The notes under the pieces are model-generated. The model was given only the letters and a program-made list of their open reading frames with translations. It had not been told where the DNA came from and made no database searches. A stretch of 64,000 bases of DNA from a virus (Duplodnaviria; Caudoviricetes): the IMG/VR virus record IMGVR_UViG_3300042256_000025; one strand, written 5' to 3'. Positions 9,770-37,819 of this stretch are shown piece after piece (position 1 is the stretch's first letter; the number at the start of each line of letters is the position of its first letter). A program made the translations under genes and the position numbers.

Positions 9770-11231
9770 CCTTCTGTCCACTACAGACGCGACTCTGTAG
9801 CCGGTGTGCTTCGACACCCACCCCTGCTTTCACAGGGGAGCAGACCATATCACCTTCCTTCCACAGCGTGGTTAGGAAGCCTCCCGTATGGCAGGCGCTT
9901 GCCCGCTACTCCGCGCTACCGGATGGCCGTTGAACTCACTCCGTGTTACCCATAGGTAAGGTAGGAGCTTCGCTGCGTCGGTTGCCCAATCTCTAAGGGT
10001 TTTTACCATGCCTCTCACTTCCATTACTGGGAGAGGGATTACCCTACCTTTCGGTGGGTAAGGGGTACCTTAGAGCTATCAGGGGTTTCCCGCAGTTAGA
10101 GAGGATCCCTTAAACATCTCTGCCTAAGGGGACTTAGGATGTTTCCCTAGATAAGTGATGTGGTAGTGTTTCCATCTACCGTGGTTTTTCCATACGCTTC
10201 TTGCAACTGCCGCCTTGGTGGCGCCGACAGACGTAGCGAACTCTAAGATAGATTTGTATACCTCAGAAGTATCGGTCTTCAAGTTTATTACCCTTACAGG
10301 CAAAGGCTTCCGAACAGGGGCCGTAGGCTTTGGATTTTCCTTAGCCTCGACTTCCACAAACCCAGTAGTGTCAATACCGGCTGTGTGTAGATAAGTAAAC
10401 CAATAGCCATTTAAAATGTATTTTCTCCCCCGCTTTATGGCCTTATTGATCACCGCCCCACTGCGATTGAACGCCTCCGCACATGCGGTTAGTGTTGGGT
10501 AAATATACTTTACGTCGCCCTCATCTACCGGTATAGCCAGAACGGCTTTCGGTCGCCCACGTCTAGGGGTACCTATGTCTTCACGTGCTAAGCATGGCCA
10601 GGGCTCACCCTCAACGCGCAGACTAAAGAACTCCATAAAGGGCTCTTTTCTACCGCCCTTTAAATACCTATGGATGGCTTCGCCGTTCCGCTTAAAGTGT
10701 CGTGCTGCAGCCTGAAGGCTGTTAAAAGTAGTGACCGTACTATCACGTAGATCCATTACCTCAACCACCAAGTTATCAGTCCGCAACCCACTTTCGTAGG
10801 CGTGTCGAAGGTTACCGCTATAGCAAGTCCATTCTAAATTGCCAACAGATGAATCTGACTTGTCACCGTTGATGTGGTTTATAACAACCTCTTCCGGTTT
10901 TTTGGGCGAGGGTAGAAAGGTCTCACCCACTAGCCGGTGTATAAGGCGGGTACCATCTACTTTGTTATAGACTGCCGGATAACCAGACACAGTGGTCTGT
11001 GTCGCAGGTAAGTCAGTTAGAAGGTCATAAACCTCTCCAGCGGAATTAACAGCAAAGGTTTCACACCCAGCTGCCAAAACAAATCCATCCAAAGATTTAA
11101 TGCGCGTATGGTTGTCGGTAGGGTCAATCATCTTTATACCTCACATGTTATAGGTCCAAATGATTGTACCCATACTTTATTTTTTACCAGTAGTTACAAT
11201 CAACTTACTAGGGTTAACACTCCTAACGATT
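9770..11231 (-). mobile_element. Group I self-splicing intron with HNH homing endonuclease ORF
   Basis: 5' exon ends in U (GAT); intron ends in G. Core elements on the minus strand, about 9830-10100: P AACTGCGGGAAA, Q AACCGACGCAGC, R GTTCAACGGCCA, S GATATGGTCT. Confidence 0.88.
10124..11131 (-). CDS. Intron-encoded HNH homing endonuclease with NUMOD1-like repeats
   Basis: IHRLVGETF...INHINGDKSDSSVGNLEW; repeated FNSLQAAARHF / YPTLTACAEAF / YKSILEFA DNA-binding modules. Confidence 0.9.
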   Translation of the reverse strand: MIDPTDNHTRIKSLDGFVLAAGCETFAVNSAGEVYDLLTDLPATQTTVSGYPAVYNKVDGTRLIHRLVGETFLPSPKKPEEVVINHINGDKSDSSVGNLEWTCYSGNLRHAYESGLRTDNLVVEVMDLRDSTVTTFNSLQAAARHFKRNGEAIHRYLKGGRKEPFMEFFSLRVEGEPWPCLAREDIGTPRRGRPKAVLAIPVDEGDVKYIYPTLTACAEAFNRSGAVINKAIKRGRKYILNGYWFTYLHTAGIDTTGFVEVEAKENPKPTAPVRKPLPVRVINLKTDTSEVYKSILEFATSVGATKAAVARSVWKNHGRWKHYHITYLGKHPKSP

Positions 11232-12467
11232 ATCAGCGTTAGGAGCCTTCGTGCATAAAACTGACAACGTCGACACTCCTGAGGTCAGAGCATGTATATG
11301 CATGCACTGAATACTTCCCCTCGCAAGGGTCGGATAGCGGACCCACAGACAGCGTACGCCTTTACCCCCTGGGGCCTCTTGGAAGATCTCATAGAGTAGC
11401 TCCTCTAGCAGTGCATTGCGTGTGATGGTGTGACGATCGATGTATTCCCAGGCTTCTCGATGACTATAGCCCTTCTTGTAGAGTTTATTCAACAAGTGAA
11501 CTTTAAACATCGTAACCGCTTGAGAGTACGGGATCTTTATTTGCTCATAGTCATGTACCCCTGATTCCGAGACAATCACAGACCGGAATGCAAACGGTGT
11601 GCGTCCACCAAAGACGGTGTTACGCAGGAGACCTTCCTTTTTGGAGAAGGGGTCACCGAACATGTCGCTGTAGTAGCTAGCCAGCGAGTTAATGATGGAG
11701 GTAATCTTGCCTTCTAAGCGGCGTACGTTTGCATAGGTCTCCTCGTCGATAGACGTAATAGTGCGGGCCGCGTCTAGCGCTTCACGAATAGCGGTATCGG
11801 CATAGGTACCCGTAGCCGTGTTCTCCATGACGAATGCGATCTTATTCGGCATGGGGAGGTGTTGTGGAAAGAAGCGGTCCCGGTAGACGGTGAAAAACGT
11901 CTGCATGGACTCGCGTTCGTGTCTGGGCAATAGGGTTAAAATGGCCTCAGCGATATCATCAAAGTGGGCAATGAAATTATTCAGGCCTCTTGGGATGCCT
12001 GTTTTCATTAACCTATGTTTAATCATCGAGGCTTTCTTATTTGACTCAGGGGGATCTTCCATGAGTGGTGCACAGAACCACTGTAGTACATTAAAGCGTG
12101 ATCCAGTCATTATTGGAGATAGAATCATCCACAGCATTGGATTTACAAGGCTATAGATGCCTTGAGGGGCACGGAACCATACATTAGAGACGATCTCTTG
12201 GTCACCGGCTGCCTCTACACGGGTATTGCACTTAGGACAGAGTTGCCCTAGGTTATAGCCATAGGAGAGGTGACCACAGCTGCAGGAGGGAATCGATTCC
12301 AGTGTATCGGTGTGGTCATAAGTTGTCATGATCATAGCGTTCAATGCATCCCGCTCTTCCTTCGTTCGGGCCGGAACATCATTCAGGATGATCGGTGTGA
12401 AAGGGAGGGAGTGGAAGGCCCGATCGTGGTCATGGATAGAGAAAGCAATCATTTCATTCTCGTGCAT
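11232..12467 (-). CDS. nvRNAP beta' subunit (phiKZ gp55-like), exon 1
   Basis: Zinc finger CSCG...CPKC; KKEGLLRNTVFGGR, RSVIV and RYPTL motifs; ends APNAD at the splice site. Spliced product is 480 aa. Confidence 0.88.
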
Positions 12468-12664: not shown

Positions 12665-13216
12665 TTAAACTGTAATTCTCTTAAAAGGAATTACCCAGTA
12701 ACTGCTGGTCTTGTTGGCGTAGTACCAATTCCCACCGCTGAAGTTAAGCACCCAGGCGTTGTAGGAACTGAACTCGGAAGAGGACCAGACGATCGCCGTG
12801 GGTAGACTGCCACTACTATCTAACGCATCTATCTGAGTCCTATTATTATAAATAAGCTGTAAATCGGATGCATTGGGCAGGTCATACCCTAGACTACGAC
12901 AATATTCTGCTGCAGGGCATCCAATGTTACCATACGAATCAGAGATAGAATTGTAAGTAGGACTAACCAATACACTAGTATTGTACACGGAAGAGTTTGG
13001 ATCAGTAGGGGTAGTGGGTGAGCCATTAGTACCACTTGCATTAGGCAGATTAGTATCAGTACCGTATAAACCCCAATCTTTAGTAGTACGTAGGCTAGCT
13101 GGAGCTACTACTAACCAGTCTCCATTATCCTGTCCAAAGATAATCCCTCCATACGGAAGGGTTGTACCAATCTTTATATCACTCATAGCTATACCTTCTT
13201 TTTTGCTAATGTACAT
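12665..13216 (-). CDS. Stand-alone CLec/DUF1566-type ligand-binding protein; remote DGR target C
   Basis: Homologous to the C-terminal domain of 36524-37819 (GGIIFGQDNGDWLVVAPAS, AAEYCRSLGYDLPN, VWSSSE, WVIPFKR); carries a 3' VR. Confidence 0.85.
   Translation of the reverse strand: MYISKKEGIAMSDIKIGTTLPYGGIIFGQDNGDWLVVAPASLRTTKDWGLYGTDTNLPNASGTNGSPTTPTDPNSSVYNTSVLVSPTYNSISDSYGNIGCPAAEYCRSLGYDLPNASDLQLIYNNRTQIDALDSSGSLPTAIVWSSSEFSSYNAWVLNFSGGNWYYANKTSSYWVIPFKRITV
12677..12802 (-). repeat. DGR variable repeat VR-C
   Basis: 126-nt ungapped match to the TR; by hand 19 mismatches at TR adenines and 9 at other bases. Confidence 0.8.
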
Positions 13217-13803
13217 TAGTTTTGTATATGAATTCTCTTAAATGGCACTACCCAGCAGATGCTGTGTTTGTAGCTGTAGTACCAATTCCCATTGCTGAAA
13301 TAAAGCATCCAGGCACTATAGGAATTGTACTCGGAAGAGGTCCAGACGCGCGTCGTGCCATACTCTGGCATATTCCCAAACTCAATAACCGATAGTGTGG
13401 GCCCTTCGGTGGTATCTGTAGCATCAATAGCTACCCTATTATCGTAGATTAGCTGCAAATCAGATGCATTGGGTAGGTCGTACCCTAGAGTACGACAGTA
13501 TTCTGCAGCGGGGCAGCCTACGTTGCCAAATGCATCGATAGTAGCACTATACTCATTACTAGTCAATGTACTAGTATTGTACTTACTACTATTCATATCG
13601 TTTGGTTTAGTAGGTGAGCCAACACTGCCACTCGTATTTGGAAGACTAGTATCTGTAGCGTATAATCCCCATGGCTTAATGATACGCTTACTAGCTGGAG
13701 CTACCACCAGCCAATCCCCACCATCTTCTCCGAATACAACCCCTCCGTCCTCTAATACACTACCTACCTTTAAGCCGCTCATGGCTTTAGTACCCTTTGA
13801 CAT
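13216..13803 (-). CDS. Stand-alone CLec/DUF1566-type protein; remote DGR target B (most drifted)
   Basis: Paralog of both neighbours; VWTSSE...AWMLYFSNGNW...WVVPFKR. Confidence 0.85.
   Translation of the reverse strand: MSKGTKAMSGLKVGSVLEDGGVVFGEDGGDWLVVAPASKRIIKPWGLYATDTSLPNTSGSVGSPTKPNDMNSSKYNTSTLTSNEYSATIDAFGNVGCPAAEYCRTLGYDLPNASDLQLIYDNRVAIDATDTTEGPTLSVIEFGNMPEYGTTRVWTSSEYNSYSAWMLYFSNGNWYYSYKHSICWVVPFKRIHIQN
13234..13359 (-). repeat. DGR variable repeat VR-B (degenerate)
   Basis: Colinear with the TR; many adenine-site changes plus about 16 non-A differences. Confidence 0.6.
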
Positions 13804-13809
13804 TGTACA

Positions 13810-14376
13810 TTAGTTTTGTATATGAATTCTCTTAAAAGGAATTACCCAGCGACTGCCGAGCTTGTTGGTGCAGTTCCAATACCCATAGCTGAAGAGAAGA
13901 CTCCAGGCGTTGTAGGAACTGTACTCGGAAGAGGACCAGACGCTCGACGTGGTGGAGCCAGGGGCAGTACCAGAGGAAATAGCCGATAACGTAGCTCCAC
14001 CGCTAGTGTCCAATGCATCAATCTGAGTCCTATTATTATAAATAAGCTGTAAATCAGATGCATTGGGTAGGTCGTACCCTAGACTACGACAATACTCTGC
14101 TGCAGTAGCCCCTACATTACCCTGTCCATCATTGATGGAATTGTAAGTAGGGCTAGTAAGTACATCCGTATTGTATTCTGATGAGTTAGGGTCAGTAGGG
14201 GTAGTAGTAGTCCCACTGCCACTCGTCCAGTTTGGAAGACTAGTATCAGTACCGTATAAACCCCAATCTTTAGTAGTACGTAGGCTAGCTGGAGCTACTA
14301 CAAGCCAATCTCCATTATCTTCTCCAAATACAACTCCACCATCAGGAAGAATTGTACCAATCTTTAAATCAGTCAT
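13810..14376 (-). CDS. Stand-alone CLec/DUF1566-type protein; remote DGR target A
   Basis: RBS GGAGG; paralog of the DGR target C-terminal domain. Confidence 0.85.
   Translation of the reverse strand: MTDLKIGTILPDGGVVFGEDNGDWLVVAPASLRTTKDWGLYGTDTSLPNWTSGSGTTTTPTDPNSSEYNTDVLTSPTYNSINDGQGNVGATAAEYCRSLGYDLPNASDLQLIYNNRTQIDALDTSGGATLSAISSGTAPGSTTSSVWSSSEYSSYNAWSLLFSYGYWNCTNKLGSRWVIPFKRIHIQN
13828..13953 (-). repeat. DGR variable repeat VR-A
   Basis: 126-nt ungapped match to the TR; by hand 20 adenine-site mismatches and 9 non-A mismatches at the same positions as in VR-C. Confidence 0.8.
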
Positions 14377-14475: not shown

Positions 14476-16431
14476 TCATCGGTTAAAGGGCTTGTTGAAT
14501 ACGGGGTTGATGTAGCTACCACGCATCTGCTCACCCATCGGGCCGGTCTGACCGTACGGAGACTGGTAGAAACCAGCTGCGTTGTAGGTACCACCGAAGT
14601 TCGGGTCGATACCCTGACGCTGCATGCCCTGATCGTAAGCGACCATGTCATCGGAGATGATACGGACGTCATTGTTGATCAGTGCCTGTACCAGACAGGG
14701 AATGAAGTTCGGTGAGAAGTACACCCGAGTGGCCATGCCGTTGATGTTACAGTCACCGGCAACGGACATCAGGCAGCGACGACGATCGGACAGGTTAATG
14801 TTGTTAGCGATACCCGGAGTCATTGCTGCGGTAGCCTGGGCTACGAACTGCAAGTCTTTCGGAGATGCTGCCAGCATGGTCAGATAATCGATAGTGCGCA
14901 GGTCACGAGCGCGACCGTCCTTATCGGTGTAGGTACCGAGGTGGACAGTAACAGTATCGTGGTGCATCACCGCAGCCTTAGCGTTACCGCTGTTAGCCTG
15001 TGCCCACACCTGGGAGAAGGCTCCGCCAGTCAGTGCATCGCATTCAGCGATGATGTCATCATTGGCGCCAGAGCGCGGGTTCTGCGCTGCAGCAATGAAT
15101 ACAGACTGTACCCACTCCAGACGACCGCCCTGCTCCACGTCCAGTGCAACAGCAACATTCTGCGTGCACCACTTATTGGCCATGCTGAACGGGGTTTCCT
15201 TACCTTCCTCCGGTACCTTGTTCAGGGAGACGGATTCAACCGGCACCTTACCCAACGCTTCCGGACCACGACCATAGGGATCGTATTCCAGACCCAGCAG
15301 ACCGATGGACTGCTTCTGTGTCTTCTGACCCGGGTAGGTTTCGAAGACACGAACCCAACCATGGTTAGCGGTCATGGCCAGCGTTGCAACCAGACCCATC
15401 AGCTGGGTGCGCAGGTCTTCAATTGAACGTCCGGAGTTAGCCAGACCGGCCACCTCGGTCAATATCACGACCGGCATGTAACCCGGCTTCGGTACCTGCG
15501 GCTGCTGCAGCTGGGCGTACGGGGACGACTGCTGCTGGGTTATGATATTGAAGTCTATGTAACCGGACACTTCGGCCAAGTTATGCTCCTGAGTACCAGT
15601 GTGTACCTGGTACATGTCACCCTGCTTCTGATTCACACGGGTCAGTTTGATGGATGTATTAAAGTCAGCTGCAATCGGCTGGCCAATACGGTTCAAACGA
15701 CACTCACCCGGAGTGATTGTAGTGCGCTGACGCACTGCAACCTGTGGGTTACGCAGGTGCTTGGCGGTTACACGACCCACGCCCTGACCACCAGCAGCAT
15801 CGATGATCGCCAGATGTGCAGAGTCAAAGTACACTCGAGTCACCTCAGCAGAGGACAGGTCCGCTGCTTTCGGTACCACACAGTGGCCGATATGAACCAC
15901 ATCAGCCGGATTCACCTTGTACTGGCTAGCCACGAAGGTGGAGACCACTTCACGCAGCTTGCTATCGAAGCAGCGGGTGGTTGGTCGATCAGTGATGATG
16001 TCCTTCTGACCCGAATAATCTCGGATTGTCTCCACGATCGGTTCCAGCTTAGAGGACATCATGCCCTCAATCAACAGGTTGTACACTACGACCTGCTTGG
16101 TGGCGCTGGAAACCGCACACAGTGCCAACACCGGCAGATACAATTGCTGACTTGAAACGGAGACCACCTCCAGTTTCAGCATGTTGCTGATCTCTGGCAG
16201 TCCTGCCAGTCGCTTCATCTCTTCACTGAAGGCTGCGAAGCCTTCAGTATCCATACCACCGGACAGGGTGGTGACACCCAGGCCATCGAAAGGATCTGTA
16301 CCGTCATACTCGTTATAACGAGTATTGTTACTATACCCCTGTTGTGGCTGGGGCTGATGTGTCTGCTGTGCAGCCTGCGGCTGTGCAGTCTGGTCCGCAG
16401 TTTTGTTCTGAGAGTTGTCATTCACACGCAT
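14476..16431 (-). CDS. chmA: Chimallin, major phage nuclear shell protein
   Basis: 651 aa; Q-rich disordered N-terminus; RLNRIGQPIAADF, VSGYIDF, HLGTYTDKDGRARDLRTIDYL and GMATRVYF segments; sits between the DNA polymerase and gp55-like genes; early promoter. Confidence 0.85.
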   Translation of the reverse strand: MRVNDNSQNKTADQTAQPQAAQQTHQPQPQQGYSNNTRYNEYDGTDPFDGLGVTTLSGGMDTEGFAAFSEEMKRLAGLPEISNMLKLEVVSVSSQQLYLPVLALCAVSSATKQVVVYNLLIEGMMSSKLEPIVETIRDYSGQKDIITDRPTTRCFDSKLREVVSTFVASQYKVNPADVVHIGHCVVPKAADLSSAEVTRVYFDSAHLAIIDAAGGQGVGRVTAKHLRNPQVAVRQRTTITPGECRLNRIGQPIAADFNTSIKLTRVNQKQGDMYQVHTGTQEHNLAEVSGYIDFNIITQQQSSPYAQLQQPQVPKPGYMPVVILTEVAGLANSGRSIEDLRTQLMGLVATLAMTANHGWVRVFETYPGQKTQKQSIGLLGLEYDPYGRGPEALGKVPVESVSLNKVPEEGKETPFSMANKWCTQNVAVALDVEQGGRLEWVQSVFIAAAQNPRSGANDDIIAECDALTGGAFSQVWAQANSGNAKAAVMHHDTVTVHLGTYTDKDGRARDLRTIDYLTMLAASPKDLQFVAQATAAMTPGIANNINLSDRRRCLMSVAGDCNINGMATRVYFSPNFIPCLVQALINNDVRIISDDMVAYDQGMQRQGIDPNFGGTYNAAGFYQSPYGQTGPMGEQMRGSYINPVFNKPFNR

Positions 16432-23789: not shown

Positions 23790-24851
23790 TTAGAACACCA
23801 TACCACTGTCGTCCGTAGTACGGTCACCCTTATCCATTACCTGATGAACCCCAACGGGTGTAGCACTGGCCAGTGACGCCCGCACACTGTCGTAGCCACG
23901 GATTGCCATTTCGACGCCCCCCATAATTTGACCAATGCGACTGGCAGAGGTTGCGAAATGGAAGTTAGGCATATCCTTAGTGCCCCAGACTTTACCGTCG
24001 TAGTATCCGACACAACTATACGGCTGACCCAATGACGGAATCTCATCCCCATCACTGTTGAGCAATGACGCTGTCGAAATAACGGCACCGTCCAAGGCCG
24101 TAATATCGATACCCTGCCATTCGGGTTTACCACCAAATGTCTGTTTAAAGGGCAAAACCTCAATCAACTGAGATGGGATGTCCGCATGGTTGCGGCTATG
24201 GTCCAACCAGTTTACCAGGTCAGTGTGGTCCAGCTCATGGTGACTGCCACAGAACAAGAGACCCAGCTGACGTACGATCTCCTCGACACGATTATCGATA
24301 TCAGGACGAGAGCCCAGGTACCCATCATTGCCGCGATTATCACTGGCCGCGTTTTCCTGATAGATCATCATAATCGGCCGATTGTTGGTAGCCTTACCCA
24401 TGGCCATAGACTGCAAGGTTTCCAGGGTACGCAGGGTATTCTTGGCCTCAATACCTGAATAGGTACTGCCCACCACCAGCGTAATGACGTTAGCGCCACG
24501 ACGCAGTAGTTCAGCTGTCACCAAAGGACCTACCACAGAACCGCTGCCACCTGATGCAGAGAACATAACCAGGTTGTAATCAGACGGTTTGTGCTCCACC
24601 AACATGTTGTTGACGTGATCGTTCACGCCCTCGAAAGCTTGCTGGCGCTTCTTACCCGCGCCACGCAGACCCGGTACCAAGAAGGTTTTAATATCATCAC
24701 CCAGATCACGGATGTTTGAATCCGAGGTATCCAGCGCATATTTTCGCACAGTGGGATAGTAAGACACCTCAGTATCCTGAGGCAGACGAACAAAATCTTT
24801 GAGTAAGTTAATACCTGCACCGCCGCAGGCATAGATTGACATTGTGGACAT
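23790..24851 (-). CDS. phuZ: Phage tubulin PhuZ
   Basis: IYACGGAGINL, LDTSDSN, GAGKKR and SGGSGSVVGP tubulin/FtsZ signatures; ELDHTDL T7 loop. Confidence 0.93.
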   Translation of the reverse strand: MSTMSIYACGGAGINLLKDFVRLPQDTEVSYYPTVRKYALDTSDSNIRDLGDDIKTFLVPGLRGAGKKRQQAFEGVNDHVNNMLVEHKPSDYNLVMFSASGGSGSVVGPLVTAELLRRGANVITLVVGSTYSGIEAKNTLRTLETLQSMAMGKATNNRPIMMIYQENAASDNRGNDGYLGSRPDIDNRVEEIVRQLGLLFCGSHHELDHTDLVNWLDHSRNHADIPSQLIEVLPFKQTFGGKPEWQGIDITALDGAVISTASLLNSDGDEIPSLGQPYSCVGYYDGKVWGTKDMPNFHFATSASRIGQIMGGVEMAIRGYDSVRASLASATPVGVHQVMDKGDRTTDDSGMVF

Positions 24852-34466: not shown

Positions 34467-35600
34467 TTATAGCTTTATTAAACGGGTGCAGTTTGAATCG
34501 GTAGTAAAAAAGCCAGGGATAGTGTGTTGCTCTACTAAACGTCTACGGACATTAAATGAAGTAGAGTGCACCATGTGCCCTAAGTAGCTATTAATCGTTG
34601 ACTGTACACGATCCCGCTCTGTCCAAAAATCACTGTAGTCGACTACAATTGAATTAGCTGTAGTCAATATACAATTCCGCGTATATCGTCTCCATGGTTT
34701 ATGGACGTATCCTACGAAATTAATGCCTTGTGAGGCCGGCGTAATGGTACATTTATCTGGATGGACAGTTAACTCAAGTCGTTGTTTCAAGTATTGTCCG
34801 ATTTGTACTTTCCATTCTTCCAGCTCGCTGCGGTTGGTTGAGAGAATAACCGCGTCGTCTACGTAGCGAACGTAGGCTTTCACGCCTAAAACATGCTTGA
34901 CAAATTTATCAAAGTCATCTAGATACACGTTACTTGCAACTTGACTCAACAGATTTCCGATCGGTAAGCCATAGTTATACGGTACGTTCCAAAGTGACTT
35001 GTGTTTAGGTACGAGCTCAAACTGGCTATTCGGTTTTATAATCGGATTTACCGTAGGGTCGTTCCACAGTACCAGGTAAAGTAGATTAGATGTGAGGGAC
35101 GATGAAGGTTCACCCACATGTCGTTCAAACTTATCCCACAGTATGTACTTGTTTATAGATACGAAAAAGTTCTTTATATCAAACTGTAGAACGAAGCAGT
35201 CAGTTGCGTAGTTACGGGTTACCCTGCGATGTAGCGCGGTGACCCTATTCGAGGCGGCTAGTGTACCCCTACCCTTAATGCAGCTGTAGGTATCCTCAAT
35301 AAAGCGTTCCTCTAAGTATCGGCCAATATCTGCGTAGATAAGGTGGTGTACGATACGATCCCTAAACTGTGCCGCCCATATCTCCCGAGGTTTAGGTCGC
35401 GTTACTACGAAGACCTCGGATCGACCTATCTCATAATTGCCGTTGTTCACCTCGTCTAATAGAGTTAAAAGATTGTCCTCGAACCTTAGCTCAAATTCAA
35501 GGGCTGAACGCTTGTTGCGCTTCAAACGCCTACAGTCTAGATAGGCATAAAGTATATCTTCGTACGTGTACCGGTCCCGAAGGACTATCGGTGTAGACAC
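34467..35600 (-). CDS. DGR reverse transcriptase
   Basis: AYLDCRRLKR, KPREIWAAQFRDRIVHH, GLPIGNLLSQ (DGR-type SQ), YVRYVDD and GINFVGY. Confidence 0.97.
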   Translation of the reverse strand: MSTPIVLRDRYTYEDILYAYLDCRRLKRNKRSALEFELRFEDNLLTLLDEVNNGNYEIGRSEVFVVTRPKPREIWAAQFRDRIVHHLIYADIGRYLEERFIEDTYSCIKGRGTLAASNRVTALHRRVTRNYATDCFVLQFDIKNFFVSINKYILWDKFERHVGEPSSSLTSNLLYLVLWNDPTVNPIIKPNSQFELVPKHKSLWNVPYNYGLPIGNLLSQVASNVYLDDFDKFVKHVLGVKAYVRYVDDAVILSTNRSELEEWKVQIGQYLKQRLELTVHPDKCTITPASQGINFVGYVHKPWRRYTRNCILTTANSIVVDYSDFWTERDRVQSTINSYLGHMVHSTSFNVRRRLVEQHTIPGFFTTDSNCTRLIKL

Positions 35601-35608
35601 TTGCTTTA

Positions 35609-35734
35609 TCTCCGGAAAGGCACTACCCAGTTACTGTTGTTCTTGTTGTTGTTGTTCCAATTCCCATTGCCAAAGTTCAGGTTCCAGGCGTTGTTGGAAT
35701 TGTTCTCGGTAGAGGACCAGACGTTCGTCGTGGT
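35609..35734 (-). repeat. DGR template repeat (TR)
   Basis: 126 nt, 43 adenines, 16 AAY codons; reads TTTNVWSSTENNSNNAWNLNFGNGNWNNNNKNNSNWVVPFRR. Confidence 0.97.
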
Positions 35735-35892
35735 GTTAGACCATAGACTCGAATCACACCGACATGTCGCCACCTCGGTTAGACGCTTTTAGCCTTTTAC
35801 CGCATGGGTGCTATGGTCCGAGATAGTGGACGTCTACGCCGACCTTGGTCTAAGCGCACTCTGTCTGTGTCTCCGATAGTCCATTCGTAATG

Positions 35893-36297
35893 TTAAATTC
35901 TGGCGTCGGTTATAATTGCACCAGCCCACTGTTTTTGCTGTACTGTACAGGCAACGAGTCGTTGGACTTGTTTACCAAACCCAATTTGTCCGCGCTCTCC
36001 AGTCGACACCGCACGCACATCATAGGCAATACGATATGATAAGAGCAATGCTTGGAGGTGGTGATTTATCTCCTTTACTAGTTGCAATTTTCTATTTCTG
36101 TCATTAACCTCCTCGTAGGCTAAGAATATTGAAAGAGTCAGACTAGTGGCCTGATCGATTAGCTTCGTACCTAAGGTAAATTTAAACTGCTTAGGCATTC
36201 GTGATACTAAAATGTGGGTGTCTTTGAGTATACTCCTTGCCAGCTGATATAATTTTGTACGTTCGTGAGGTTGAATTTGATGCTCTAGATTTGTCAT
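35893..36297 (-). CDS. avd: Accessory variability determinant (Avd, four-helix bundle)
   Basis: Basic helical protein with RMPKQFKFTLGTKL, between target and TR; start taken at MTNLEH (track ORF begins at 36348). Confidence 0.85.
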   Translation of the reverse strand: MTNLEHQIQPHERTKLYQLARSILKDTHILVSRMPKQFKFTLGTKLIDQATSLTLSIFLAYEEVNDRNRKLQLVKEINHHLQALLLSYRIAYDVRAVSTGERGQIGFGKQVQRLVACTVQQKQWAGAIITDARI

Positions 36298-36332
36298 ACA
36301 AAATACAGTGGGTTGGTAAATAAAAAAAAACA

Positions 36333-36362
36333 CCCTGTAACCGCCCACGCGCGGTTACAGGG
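36333..36362 (-). terminator. Terminator-like hairpin between target gene and avd
   Basis: CCCTGTAACCGC/GCGGTTACAGGG stem followed by a T-run on the minus strand. Confidence 0.7.
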
Positions 36363-36513
36363 GGCATACATTTTGGACCCAGTCCCTACAAAGGGGCTGG
36401 GTAGCCTGTAGGGCTTTTAAATGGAGTAAGGGTAGTAAGGGCAGCCCTACAAAGGGCAAGCCCTAAAAGCAGTGTCCTTTAAAGGACACTCACAGTGACA
36501 GAGTATTGAAAGT

Positions 36514-36537
36514 GAATACCCGTTTAAACGGGTATTC
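36514..36537. promoter_or_regulatory. Perfect 24-bp palindrome at the VR 3' end (candidate retrohoming cruciform)
   Basis: GAATACCCGTTTAAACGGGTATTC; absent after the TR. Confidence 0.7.
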
Positions 36538-37819
36538 TCCGGAAAGGCACTACCCAGTAACTGTTGCCCTTGCTGCTGCTGTACCAATTCCCATTGCCAA
36601 AGGCCAGGTACCAGGCGCTGTAGGAATTGCTCTCGGTAGAGGACCAGACGTACGACGTGGGTAGGTTACCGGTAGCGTCCGCTGCATTAATCTGAGTCCG
36701 ATTATTGTAGATAAGCTGCAGATCCTTAGCATTGGGTAAGTCGTACCCTAGACTACGGCAGTATTCTGCAGCGGTAGCGCCGTTGTAGTTATTAACCAGT
36801 ACGTCCGTATTGTACTCTGAGGAGTTAGGGTCATTCGGTGGGGCCCCGGACCCTACGTTGGGAAGGCTCGTATCGGTACCGTAGAGACCCCATGCTTTAG
36901 TCTGATGCTGTGAAGCGGGTGCAACGACCAGCCAGTCGCCTCCCTCCTGACCGAAAACGATACCGCCATCGGGCAGCGTAGTGCCTACCCCGATCAGCGT
37001 TTCAGTTTTAAACCCAATATAGGCACTCCAGGCTGACCAGTCACCCGTACTATCCTTATAACGTACGCGGGCGTAATACTGGGTACCTTCTGCCAGATTA
37101 CTACTAGGCTGCCAGCTACTCACGGCACCCAATTCACCACTGTTTACCAGTCCAGTCGTAAAACCGGTGTTGGTTGCTAATTGAAACTGGGTGCCACTAT
37201 GGACCTCATTGTTCTCAATTGCAAACGCAGATGCACTGAGTGTAGGACGCAATACTACATCGGTAGAGCCATTTGTAGGGCCTGTCACAGAGGGCGTACT
37301 GGGTGCAATCGACGTGGTCGTGAAGGTGGTTAGGGGAGAGGTAGCTGTTCCGCCGGTACTGCCTTCATAAATAACCTCTACATACACAGCGGTGCTCGCT
37401 GCGAATGCGTAAAACCCTTCAACATCAAAGGTTGTCAACGCGGTGGTGGTGCGACCACTGGTAAACAAAAGGTTAGTTTTATTAACATCCCCATAGAAAT
37501 TCCAGATAGATGCAACGTGGGTATCCTGAGTACCGTCTGCCAGCACCCCATTAAAACTGGAGGCCGTAATGATAGGGCGAATAGTTACCCCAGTCGCACC
37601 GTTCAAAGGAGAAATAATTGTGGGGCGCGCGATGCCCTCGAAGGACACGTCCATTGACATTGCCACGCCACCGGGGGTAACACCGTCACAGATGTGAAGT
37701 GTGGGTACGCCTGTGCGCAGGTCAATAATCGGTTCACCCGGGGTCCCTAGATATTGTTCAATCGCATTGGACGTAAACCGTTTCCAGAGCCAAGGCTCTC
37801 GCATGATTTTTGTAGCCAT
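36524..37819 (-). CDS. DGR target, putative receptor-binding fibre: Mtd_N-like head, two Ig/FN3-like domains, CLec (DUF1566-like) tip
   Basis: GTPGEPIIDL...LHICDGVTPGG; PTIISPLNGATGV and PSVTGPTNGSTDV repeats; YYARVRYKD..WSAWS; C-terminal VR. Confidence 0.88.
   Translation of the reverse strand: MATKIMREPWLWKRFTSNAIEQYLGTPGEPIIDLRTGVPTLHICDGVTPGGVAMSMDVSFEGIARPTIISPLNGATGVTIRPIITASSFNGVLADGTQDTHVASIWNFYGDVNKTNLLFTSGRTTTALTTFDVEGFYAFAASTAVYVEVIYEGSTGGTATSPLTTFTTTSIAPSTPSVTGPTNGSTDVVLRPTLSASAFAIENNEVHSGTQFQLATNTGFTTGLVNSGELGAVSSWQPSSNLAEGTQYYARVRYKDSTGDWSAWSAYIGFKTETLIGVGTTLPDGGIVFGQEGGDWLVVAPASQHQTKAWGLYGTDTSLPNVGSGAPPNDPNSSEYNTDVLVNNYNGATAAEYCRSLGYDLPNAKDLQLIYNNRTQINAADATGNLPTSYVWSSTESNSYSAWYLAFGNGNWYSSSKGNSYWVVPFRRIPV
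36536..36661 (-). repeat. DGR variable repeat VR1
   Basis: 110/126 identical to the TR; all 16 mismatches are at TR adenines. Confidence 0.97.

Follow-up and report, generated by a model that had tools for sequence, protein, structure and literature searches.

The diversity-generating retroelement (DGR) of BPP-1, a 42-kb temperate podovirus, has the layout mtd-avd-TR-brt, in which one target gene with an Mtd-type tip is followed by Avd, a template repeat (TR) and, after a spacer of ~140 nt, the reverse transcriptase (RT) gene. Its variable repeat (VR) occupies the 3′ end of the lectin-fold tip, mutagenesis is adenine-specific, and a hairpin is found just past the VR. Bacteria (e.g., Treponema, cyanobacteria and Bacteroides) carry multi-target or remote-target DGRs in which one TR serves several distant VRs, each marked by the same 3′ recognition stretch. 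Here, we describe a DGR found in a 64-kb stretch (the window) of the ~200-kb genome of an uncultured virus, IMG/VR record IMGVR_UViG_3300042256_000025. The element is, with high probability, currently active and resident in this phiKZ-like, chimallin-encoding phage. It shares with the BPP-1 element the gene order, the position of the VR at the 3′ end of a lectin-fold tip, the adenine-specific pattern of change and, presumably, the hairpin just past the VR. It differs in having three live targets instead of one, two of them remote, in the type of the tip (Lcl_C/DUF1566 instead of Mtd) and in its carrier, a ~200-kb chimallivirus. Unlike the bacterial multi-target DGRs, which are cellular elements but use the same kind of 3′ mark, it is viral, and its DNA is presumably enclosed in a shell during replication. 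The closest relatives of the cassette (RT, 44–60% identity; Avd, 25–43%) are found in IMG/VR contigs L001–L005 and in Burkholderia, Pseudomonas and Shewanella phages such as Magia; these have TR/VR pairs and the same TR-abutting-RT layout, but they are mid-sized genomes with, as far as examined, a single adjacent target.

The cassette is read in the minus-strand sense. The listing of open reading frames (ORFs) and repeat finding at 34.4–37.9 kb placed target, Avd, TR and RT, all on the minus strand and in this order, and together they form a canonical, complete DGR with BPP-1-like anatomy:

36524..37819, minus strand: target gene, 431 aa (Pfam, AlphaFold2 (AF2) model, VIA-align)
36536..36661, minus strand: VR1, the final 42 codons of the target (direct repeat with TR)
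36514..36537, minus strand: hairpin past VR1 with a perfect 10-bp stem (DNA fold)
35893..36297, minus strand: Avd accessory gene, 134 aa from the ATG at 36297, or 151 aa from an upstream GTG at 36348 (fold, sub-threshold Pfam bAvd match)
35609..35734, minus strand: TR, 126 nt (direct repeat with VR1)
34467..35600, minus strand: DGR reverse transcriptase, 377 aa, GTG start (RVT_1, 8ub7_A)

The original prediction, made from the letters alone, had named an RT with YVDD and GNLLSQ motifs, an Avd-like gene, TR and VR1; all are present at the coordinates it gave, and its counts are exact. The TR/VR1 pair is the sole long direct repeat within 33–39.5 kb. TR contains 43 A in its 126 nt and 16 AAY codons in the VR frame. 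As had been predicted, all 16 mismatches between TR and VR1 fall on TR adenines (8 A>G, 6 A>T and 2 A>C; hypergeometric P = 3.7e-9). They are confined to codon positions 1 and 2 and alter 14 amino acids. The flanks of the two repeats are 23–29% identical, which is the random level. The 3′ end of VR1, TGGGTAGTGCCTTTCCGGAGA, matches the end of TR exactly and resembles an initiation of mutagenic homing (IMH) end. A 21-nt 3′ stretch is exact in TR and VR1 and is shared by both remote targets, in which it is seen as the C-terminus WVVPFRRIPV.

The hairpin (AATACCCGTT TAAA..) directly follows the end that TR and VR share, and the stop codon of the target overlaps with it. Folded as DNA, it has a predicted energy of −17.4 kcal/mol (z −4.4), which none of 200 shuffled sequences equalled. 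Its position, we presume, matches that of the hairpin/cruciform downstream of the BPP-1 VR. A second hairpin, with 8 bp, is located at 36471-36490. At the other end of the cassette, TR begins 158 nt past the Avd stop codon and, in contrast to BPP-1 with its spacer, abuts the RT start, ending 8 nt ahead of it (window 35600-35612), so that the GGAGA end of TR doubles as the RT ribosome-binding site. With so short a gap to the RT GTG, an RNA element that serves for priming or as a spacer has to lie partly or wholly within the RT coding sequence. Relatives L001–L003 have this layout too.

The RT matches Pfam RVT_1 (E 1.7e-18), and its best solved relative is the BPP-1 DGR RT (8ub7_A, E 7.5e-31), to which it is only ~29% identical. 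Both motifs of the DGR clade, [LIV]GxxxSQ and YxDD, are present as IGNLLSQ and YVDD and align to IGSLTSQ and YMDD of the BPP-1 enzyme. The closest RT homologues, with 52–60% identity, are themselves located in target-Avd-TR-RT cassettes. As to Avd, there is no detectable sequence similarity to bAvd of BPP-1, but the fold matches: the AF2 model is a four-helix bundle (predicted local distance difference test score (pLDDT) 83), for which Foldseek retrieved 2gsc (E 7e-5), 4dwl_D (“Avd from Bordetella bacteriophage DGR”) and 8ub7_E. Superposition with the Avd chains of 4dwl and 8ub7 gave TMt of 0.82–0.85 with a root-mean-square deviation (rmsd) of 2.4–2.5 (4dwl_D: TMt 0.85, rmsd 2.5). Pfam bAvd is matched, at sub-threshold scores, by all six Avd orthologues collected (best, 3e-8), and phmmer against PDB returned nothing useful for Avd or the target. 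Because of its position, size and modelled fold, we accept the 134-aa ORF as the probable Avd.

Activity of the element was assessed from protein alleles. Three alleles of the 431-aa target (P0001, P0026 and P0027, seen on four, three and one contigs) have the same residues 1-389, all differences being confined to the VR. Two paralogous targets, with 328 and 356 aa, share the domain plan of this target; the cluster members P0029 and P0037 are on the same 199,512-bp contig as P0001 and are absent from the window. These remote targets lie outside the 64-kb window and hence at least ~28 kb from TR. In the 328-aa and 356-aa clusters, too, hypervariable VRs are attached to gene bodies with little or no variation. 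The three genes together have 18 alleles, of which 17 were scored, P0032 being set aside due to an indel. For each residue that differs from the TR peptide, we asked whether it is reachable from the window TR codon by changing one kind of base only. The 17 alleles contain 206 such differences, and 201 of them are reachable by changing A only, compared with 8 for C, 3 for G and 1 for T. In a diverged relative, whose target is 88% identical, the target, Avd and both paralogues are found on one 155,597-bp contig, and the VRs also differ at adenine positions. Invariant bodies combined with adenine-reachable VR differences indicate that the DGR is currently active, and, at the protein level, they provide evidence for continuing mutagenic retrohoming into three genes in the population. 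The “apparently active” of the original prediction is therefore borne out at this level.

One protein in the same clusters is of mixed structure. P0028, a 459-aa protein clustered with the 431/445-aa targets, joins a 431-type N-terminal part to a C-terminal part and VR identical to those of the 356-type P0040, which indicates either recombination between paralogous targets or a hybrid assembly.

A scan of the window with TR revealed further VR-like sequences at 12.7–14.4 kb:

12665..14376, minus strand: three tandem small lectin-fold genes of 183, 195 and 188 aa (TR scan of the window)
12668-12813, minus strand: VRc, VR-like 3′ end (same scan)
13225-13370, minus strand: VRb, VR-like 3′ end (same scan)
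13819-13964, minus strand: VRa, VR-like 3′ end (same scan)

Compared with TR, these VRs have 17–20 mismatches at TR adenines plus 9–16 at non-adenines, several of the latter being shared, and the three genes have in common an altered 3′ end (..CCTTTTAAGAGA). Among relatives in the VRc cluster, the gene body has diverged to 88–90% identity, with a VR that is almost fixed; no allelic variants of the VRa and VRb genes were found in the protein collection. The non-adenine mismatches, the altered 3′ end and the near-fixed VRs led us to reject the possibility that the present TR writes these genes. They look frozen, and their sequences suggest that an earlier template or another one wrote them, either as past targets of this element or as targets of a foreign one. 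A drifting body with a fixed VR is the opposite of what is seen in the live targets, and the small lectin genes thus act as a control within the same genome: variation is seen only in genes whose 3′ stretch is intact. VR1 holds as a target, as originally predicted, but with two remote live targets and three frozen VR-like copies, the count of one was too low.

Searches with the exact 21/22-nt 3′ stretch retrieved only one contig from IMG/VR, L009, and two distant contigs, L010 and L011, from the metagenome collection. L009 (IMGVR_UViG_3300042280_000081) contains at 2359-2478 an orphan VR-like segment, in which the 21-nt 3′ stretch is exact but the body of a lectin gene is missing. On one side, it is joined to DNA homologous to window 42.7–44.0 kb and on the other to unrelated genes (DHFR-like); it was either left behind by a deletion or created when assembly joined two pieces through the repeat. 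L010 (9597-11190) and L011 (3513-4265) are ENA metagenome contigs of far more distant phages with tandem small lectin genes that carry the identical 21-nt 3′ stretch; no RT was found within the stretch examined of either.

The carrier was identified by the following genes of the window:

14476..16431, minus strand: chimallin (ChmA), the nuclear shell protein (phrog_4795, E 8.9e-53; PDB 8fne, phiPA3 PhuN, E 9e-10; PF25677 in the cluster)
23790..24851, minus strand: PhuZ tubulin (phrog_4733, E 3e-60; PDB PhuZ201 and phiKZ039, E ~6e-20)
11223-12467, minus strand: phiKZ-type RNA polymerase (RNAP) beta-like subunit (phrog_2987, E 9e-114)

Tail sheath, terminase and DNA polymerase are encoded in the window as well. 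ChmA, PhuZ, the multisubunit RNAP subunit and the tail sheath and terminase families are shared with Chimalliviridae (phiKZ, 201phi2-1, PhiPA3, Goslar and Eowyn), but ChmA is only ~24% identical to that of any cultured phage. Thirteen uncultured ChmA relatives were collected (39–100% identity), and PF25677 was matched on all 13. Since chimallin, PhuZ and the phiKZ-type RNAP subunit are found together in the window, we conclude that the carrier is a divergent uncultured chimallivirus; it is presumably lytic. The target, Avd and chimallin all occur on the 199,512-bp contig. The predicted combination of a complete DGR with a chimallivirus genome is thereby confirmed. ChmA and PhuZ were named correctly; of the predicted non-virion RNAP, a beta-type subunit is present, and the virion and non-virion RNAP sets are not told apart by it. 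Just downstream of this subunit gene, an ORF at 10124-11131 matches HNH endonucleases (phrog_59, E 7e-28).

The target protein consists of an N-terminal anchor (~1-60), an FN3/Ig-like region (~61-275) and a C-terminal C-type-lectin-fold domain of the Lcl_C/DUF1566 type (~276-431), which bears VR1. Pfam matches are Lcl_C (E 7e-7) and Ig_Rha78A_N (E 1.5e-6). Foldseek with the whole 431-aa model was noisy, and the domains were resolved by VIA-align. The C-terminal domain, modelled by AF2 with pLDDT > 90, aligns over residues 276-429 with the lectin-fold tip of 4eps (Z 14.0) and also with the C-terminal domain of Legionella Lcl, 8q4e (Z 13.4). FN3-like matches at Z ~10 span residues 61-275, of which residues 136-240 are poorly modelled; a second FN3/Ig domain is suggested solely by the Ig_Rha78A_N match at 222-273. 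The VR, being the last 42 codons, lies inside the C-type-lectin-fold domain, and the ligand-binding face of the targets can be randomised at up to 16 AAY codons, i.e., 15^16 or ~7e18 variants. The Ig and lectin-fold parts of the “Mtd_N-like/Ig/CLec” architecture originally proposed hold; the Mtd_N part is only hinted at, by a single sub-threshold match (E 0.003) on a paralogue of the target.

As regards the origin of the cassette, the closest relatives of RT (52–60% identity), Avd (25–43%) and target (54% at the N-terminus, in L001) belong to the same cassette in phage contigs of 24–94 kb, one of them complete, and an own TR/VR pair was found in all three of those checked (L001–L003). A scan of IMG/VR for chimallin with a single protein gave no match; an alignment-based scan found one relative, a 202,179-bp genome with terminal repeats and a ChmA 52% identical to ours (IMGVR_UViG_3300048591_000242). 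No RVT_1 domain was detected in this nearest full-length chimallivirus reached, and positive controls matched in the same search. At ~28–51 kb, it encodes at least 8 paralogues (L013–L021) with the N-terminal anchor and FN3 module of the target, tipped by FG-GAP beta-propellers, and one of these ORFs has 2185 aa; the cluster is a putative modular family of adsorption proteins. Recurrence of the module in this relative places the target in an “anchor-FN3-binding tip” family native to the phage clade. Since the cassette resembles those of 24–94 kb phages and the nearest full-length chimallivirus has no RT, a lineage-specific, horizontal acquisition of the DGR with its lectin tip is suggested. 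An RT 57% identical to that of the window (P0075) is found on a 340-kb ENA contig, which could be a bacterial contig with a prophage or a very large DGR phage.

Several results weigh against an active DGR that diversifies adsorption proteins of a nucleus-forming phage. The population evidence is at the protein level, and 5 of the 206 residue differences need non-adenine changes. The Avd ORF itself scores below the Pfam bAvd threshold (E 5e-4, 20.9 bits vs. the 40-bit cut-off), and hhalign of the Avd alignment against BPP-1 Avd detected no similarity. As to directionality, no IMH vs. IMH* difference was found between the VR-side and TR-side 3′ ends within the repeat. Nucleus formation by this phage is presumed from gene content alone. 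Mtd_N has no match on the target itself, the neighbours of the cassette are small genes of unknown function and an endolysin-like gene with no recognisable tail module, and the PHROG search yielded no tail-protein annotation for the target.

The last two points speak for an alternative in which the DGR is real and active but its targets are non-virion binders, e.g., secreted, cell-surface or intracellular lectin-fold proteins acting against host defences or competitors, and the same phage does keep anchor-less small lectin genes beside chmA. We regard this alternative as unlikely, though not far-fetched. The architecture of anchor plus FN3 is common to the large multi-gene family with other binding tips in the related chimallivirus; the homologous cassette of the 83-kb phage L001, whose target shares the 54% identical N-terminus, directly follows tail-fibre genes; and viral DGR targets are mostly tail proteins (PMC8144416). 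The targets would accordingly be located in the virion and bind receptors, and their most likely role is the diversification of host-adsorption fibres. Two further explanations concern the DGR and its place in the genome. If allelic VR differences came from recombination or gene conversion among paralogous lectin tips, the DGR would be a relic, and the mixed structure of P0028 fits such exchange. However, changes at adenines alone suffice for 201 of the 206 residue differences, almost all alleles have a VR of their own (except P0028, which equals P0040) on an identical gene body, RT and Avd are intact and conserved at 91–98% in relatives, and the paralogues with a mutated 3′ end are invariant. 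Gene conversion alone was rejected on the basis of the adenine-reachable differences, unique VRs and invariant bodies, and we give it almost no credence. Likewise, the cassette could come from a co-occurring mid-sized phage and have been misassembled into the jumbo-phage contig at repeats: its closest RT, Avd and target relatives are in 24–94 kb phages, the orphan VR-like piece of L009 is at an odd junction, and L007 and L008, two independent IMG/VR contigs of this lineage, end at window 36731 and ~36797, respectively, 70–140 nt upstream of VR1. Such ends are what a repeat or hypervariable site would be expected to produce in assemblies. Moreover, three assemblies, including L007 and L008, run without a break from the phage backbone into the 5′ 1.1 kb of the target, the 155.6-kb contig of the diverged relative carries the target, Avd and both remote targets, the exact 134-aa Avd protein is present on 11 contigs, the GC content of the cassette (0.46–0.49) equals that of the window, and the remote targets of the 199.5-kb contig terminate in the 3′ stretch of TR. 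Backbone contiguity and the contig of the diverged relative led us to reject misassembly, which is extremely improbable; the same data argue against a chimeric assembly at the DGR borders, a concern raised with the original prediction. We therefore retain an active DGR resident in the chimallivirus.

The element itself is an ordinary DGR; what is new is its chimallivirus setting, which is unreported. The full-text literature yielded no paper that treats DGRs together with chimalliviruses, phiKZ-like phages or the phage nucleus, and no DGR of a nucleus-forming or jumbo phage was found in either a paper or a GenBank phage record, so the novelty suspected in the original prediction is not contradicted by these searches. 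Megablast of the cassette against GenBank phages gave no match. A relative of the RT is present in 116 GenBank phage records, and among the ~80 of them listed, none exceeds 137 kb. A search of the RT-relative records with phrog_4795 (chimallin) gave no match, but neither did the control, and this result is weak. A survey of 224 jumbo-phage genomes found no DGR-type FGS lectin domains (PMC7824862), DGRs go unmentioned in a 2025 review on nucleus-forming phages (PMC12908238), a large DGR census does not mention jumbo phages (PMC8144416), and the RT of a Staphylococcus jumbo phage is explicitly not a DGR.

By analogy with BPP-1, the avd-TR-RT transcript would supply the template RNA, which RT and the four-helix-bundle protein Avd would copy into cDNA with misincorporation opposite adenines. 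The cDNA would then replace the last 42 codons of genes that end in TGGGTAGTGCCTTTCCGGAGA, followed at VR1 by the hairpin. Three genes would be rewritten in this way: the adjacent 431-aa gene and the remote 356-aa and 328-aa paralogues. In chimalliviruses, DNA replication and transcription take place inside the ChmA shell and translation outside, and import is selective and PicA-dependent (PMC12908238). If the phage behaves like its cultured relatives, RT and Avd may be imported as (PicA-type) cargo, or else a cytoplasmic ribonucleoprotein (RNP) or cDNA may cross the chimallin shell. With an active DGR and phage DNA in the shell, one of these two entry routes should work; we infer that the shell must admit RT-Avd or else a cytoplasmically made RNP or cDNA. 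We are evenly divided on the fuller claim that this is the first DGR documented in a nucleus-forming phage and that, for mutagenic retrohoming on shell-enclosed DNA, RT-Avd or an RNA-cDNA-protein complex would have to be imported selectively.

The locus extends active multi-target mutagenic retrohoming to large phiKZ-like phages and provides a natural comparison of live with frozen targets, the two kinds being distinguished by their 3′ recognition stretch. It also raises a question about the phage nucleus, with RT and Avd made in the cytoplasm and TR RNA and target DNA in the nucleus: if the proposed scheme is true, there would be a natural reverse-transcription pathway inside a viral compartment that separates transcription from translation. 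For the biology of these viruses, the finding suggests that some jumbo phages may re-aim several adsorption proteins at once.

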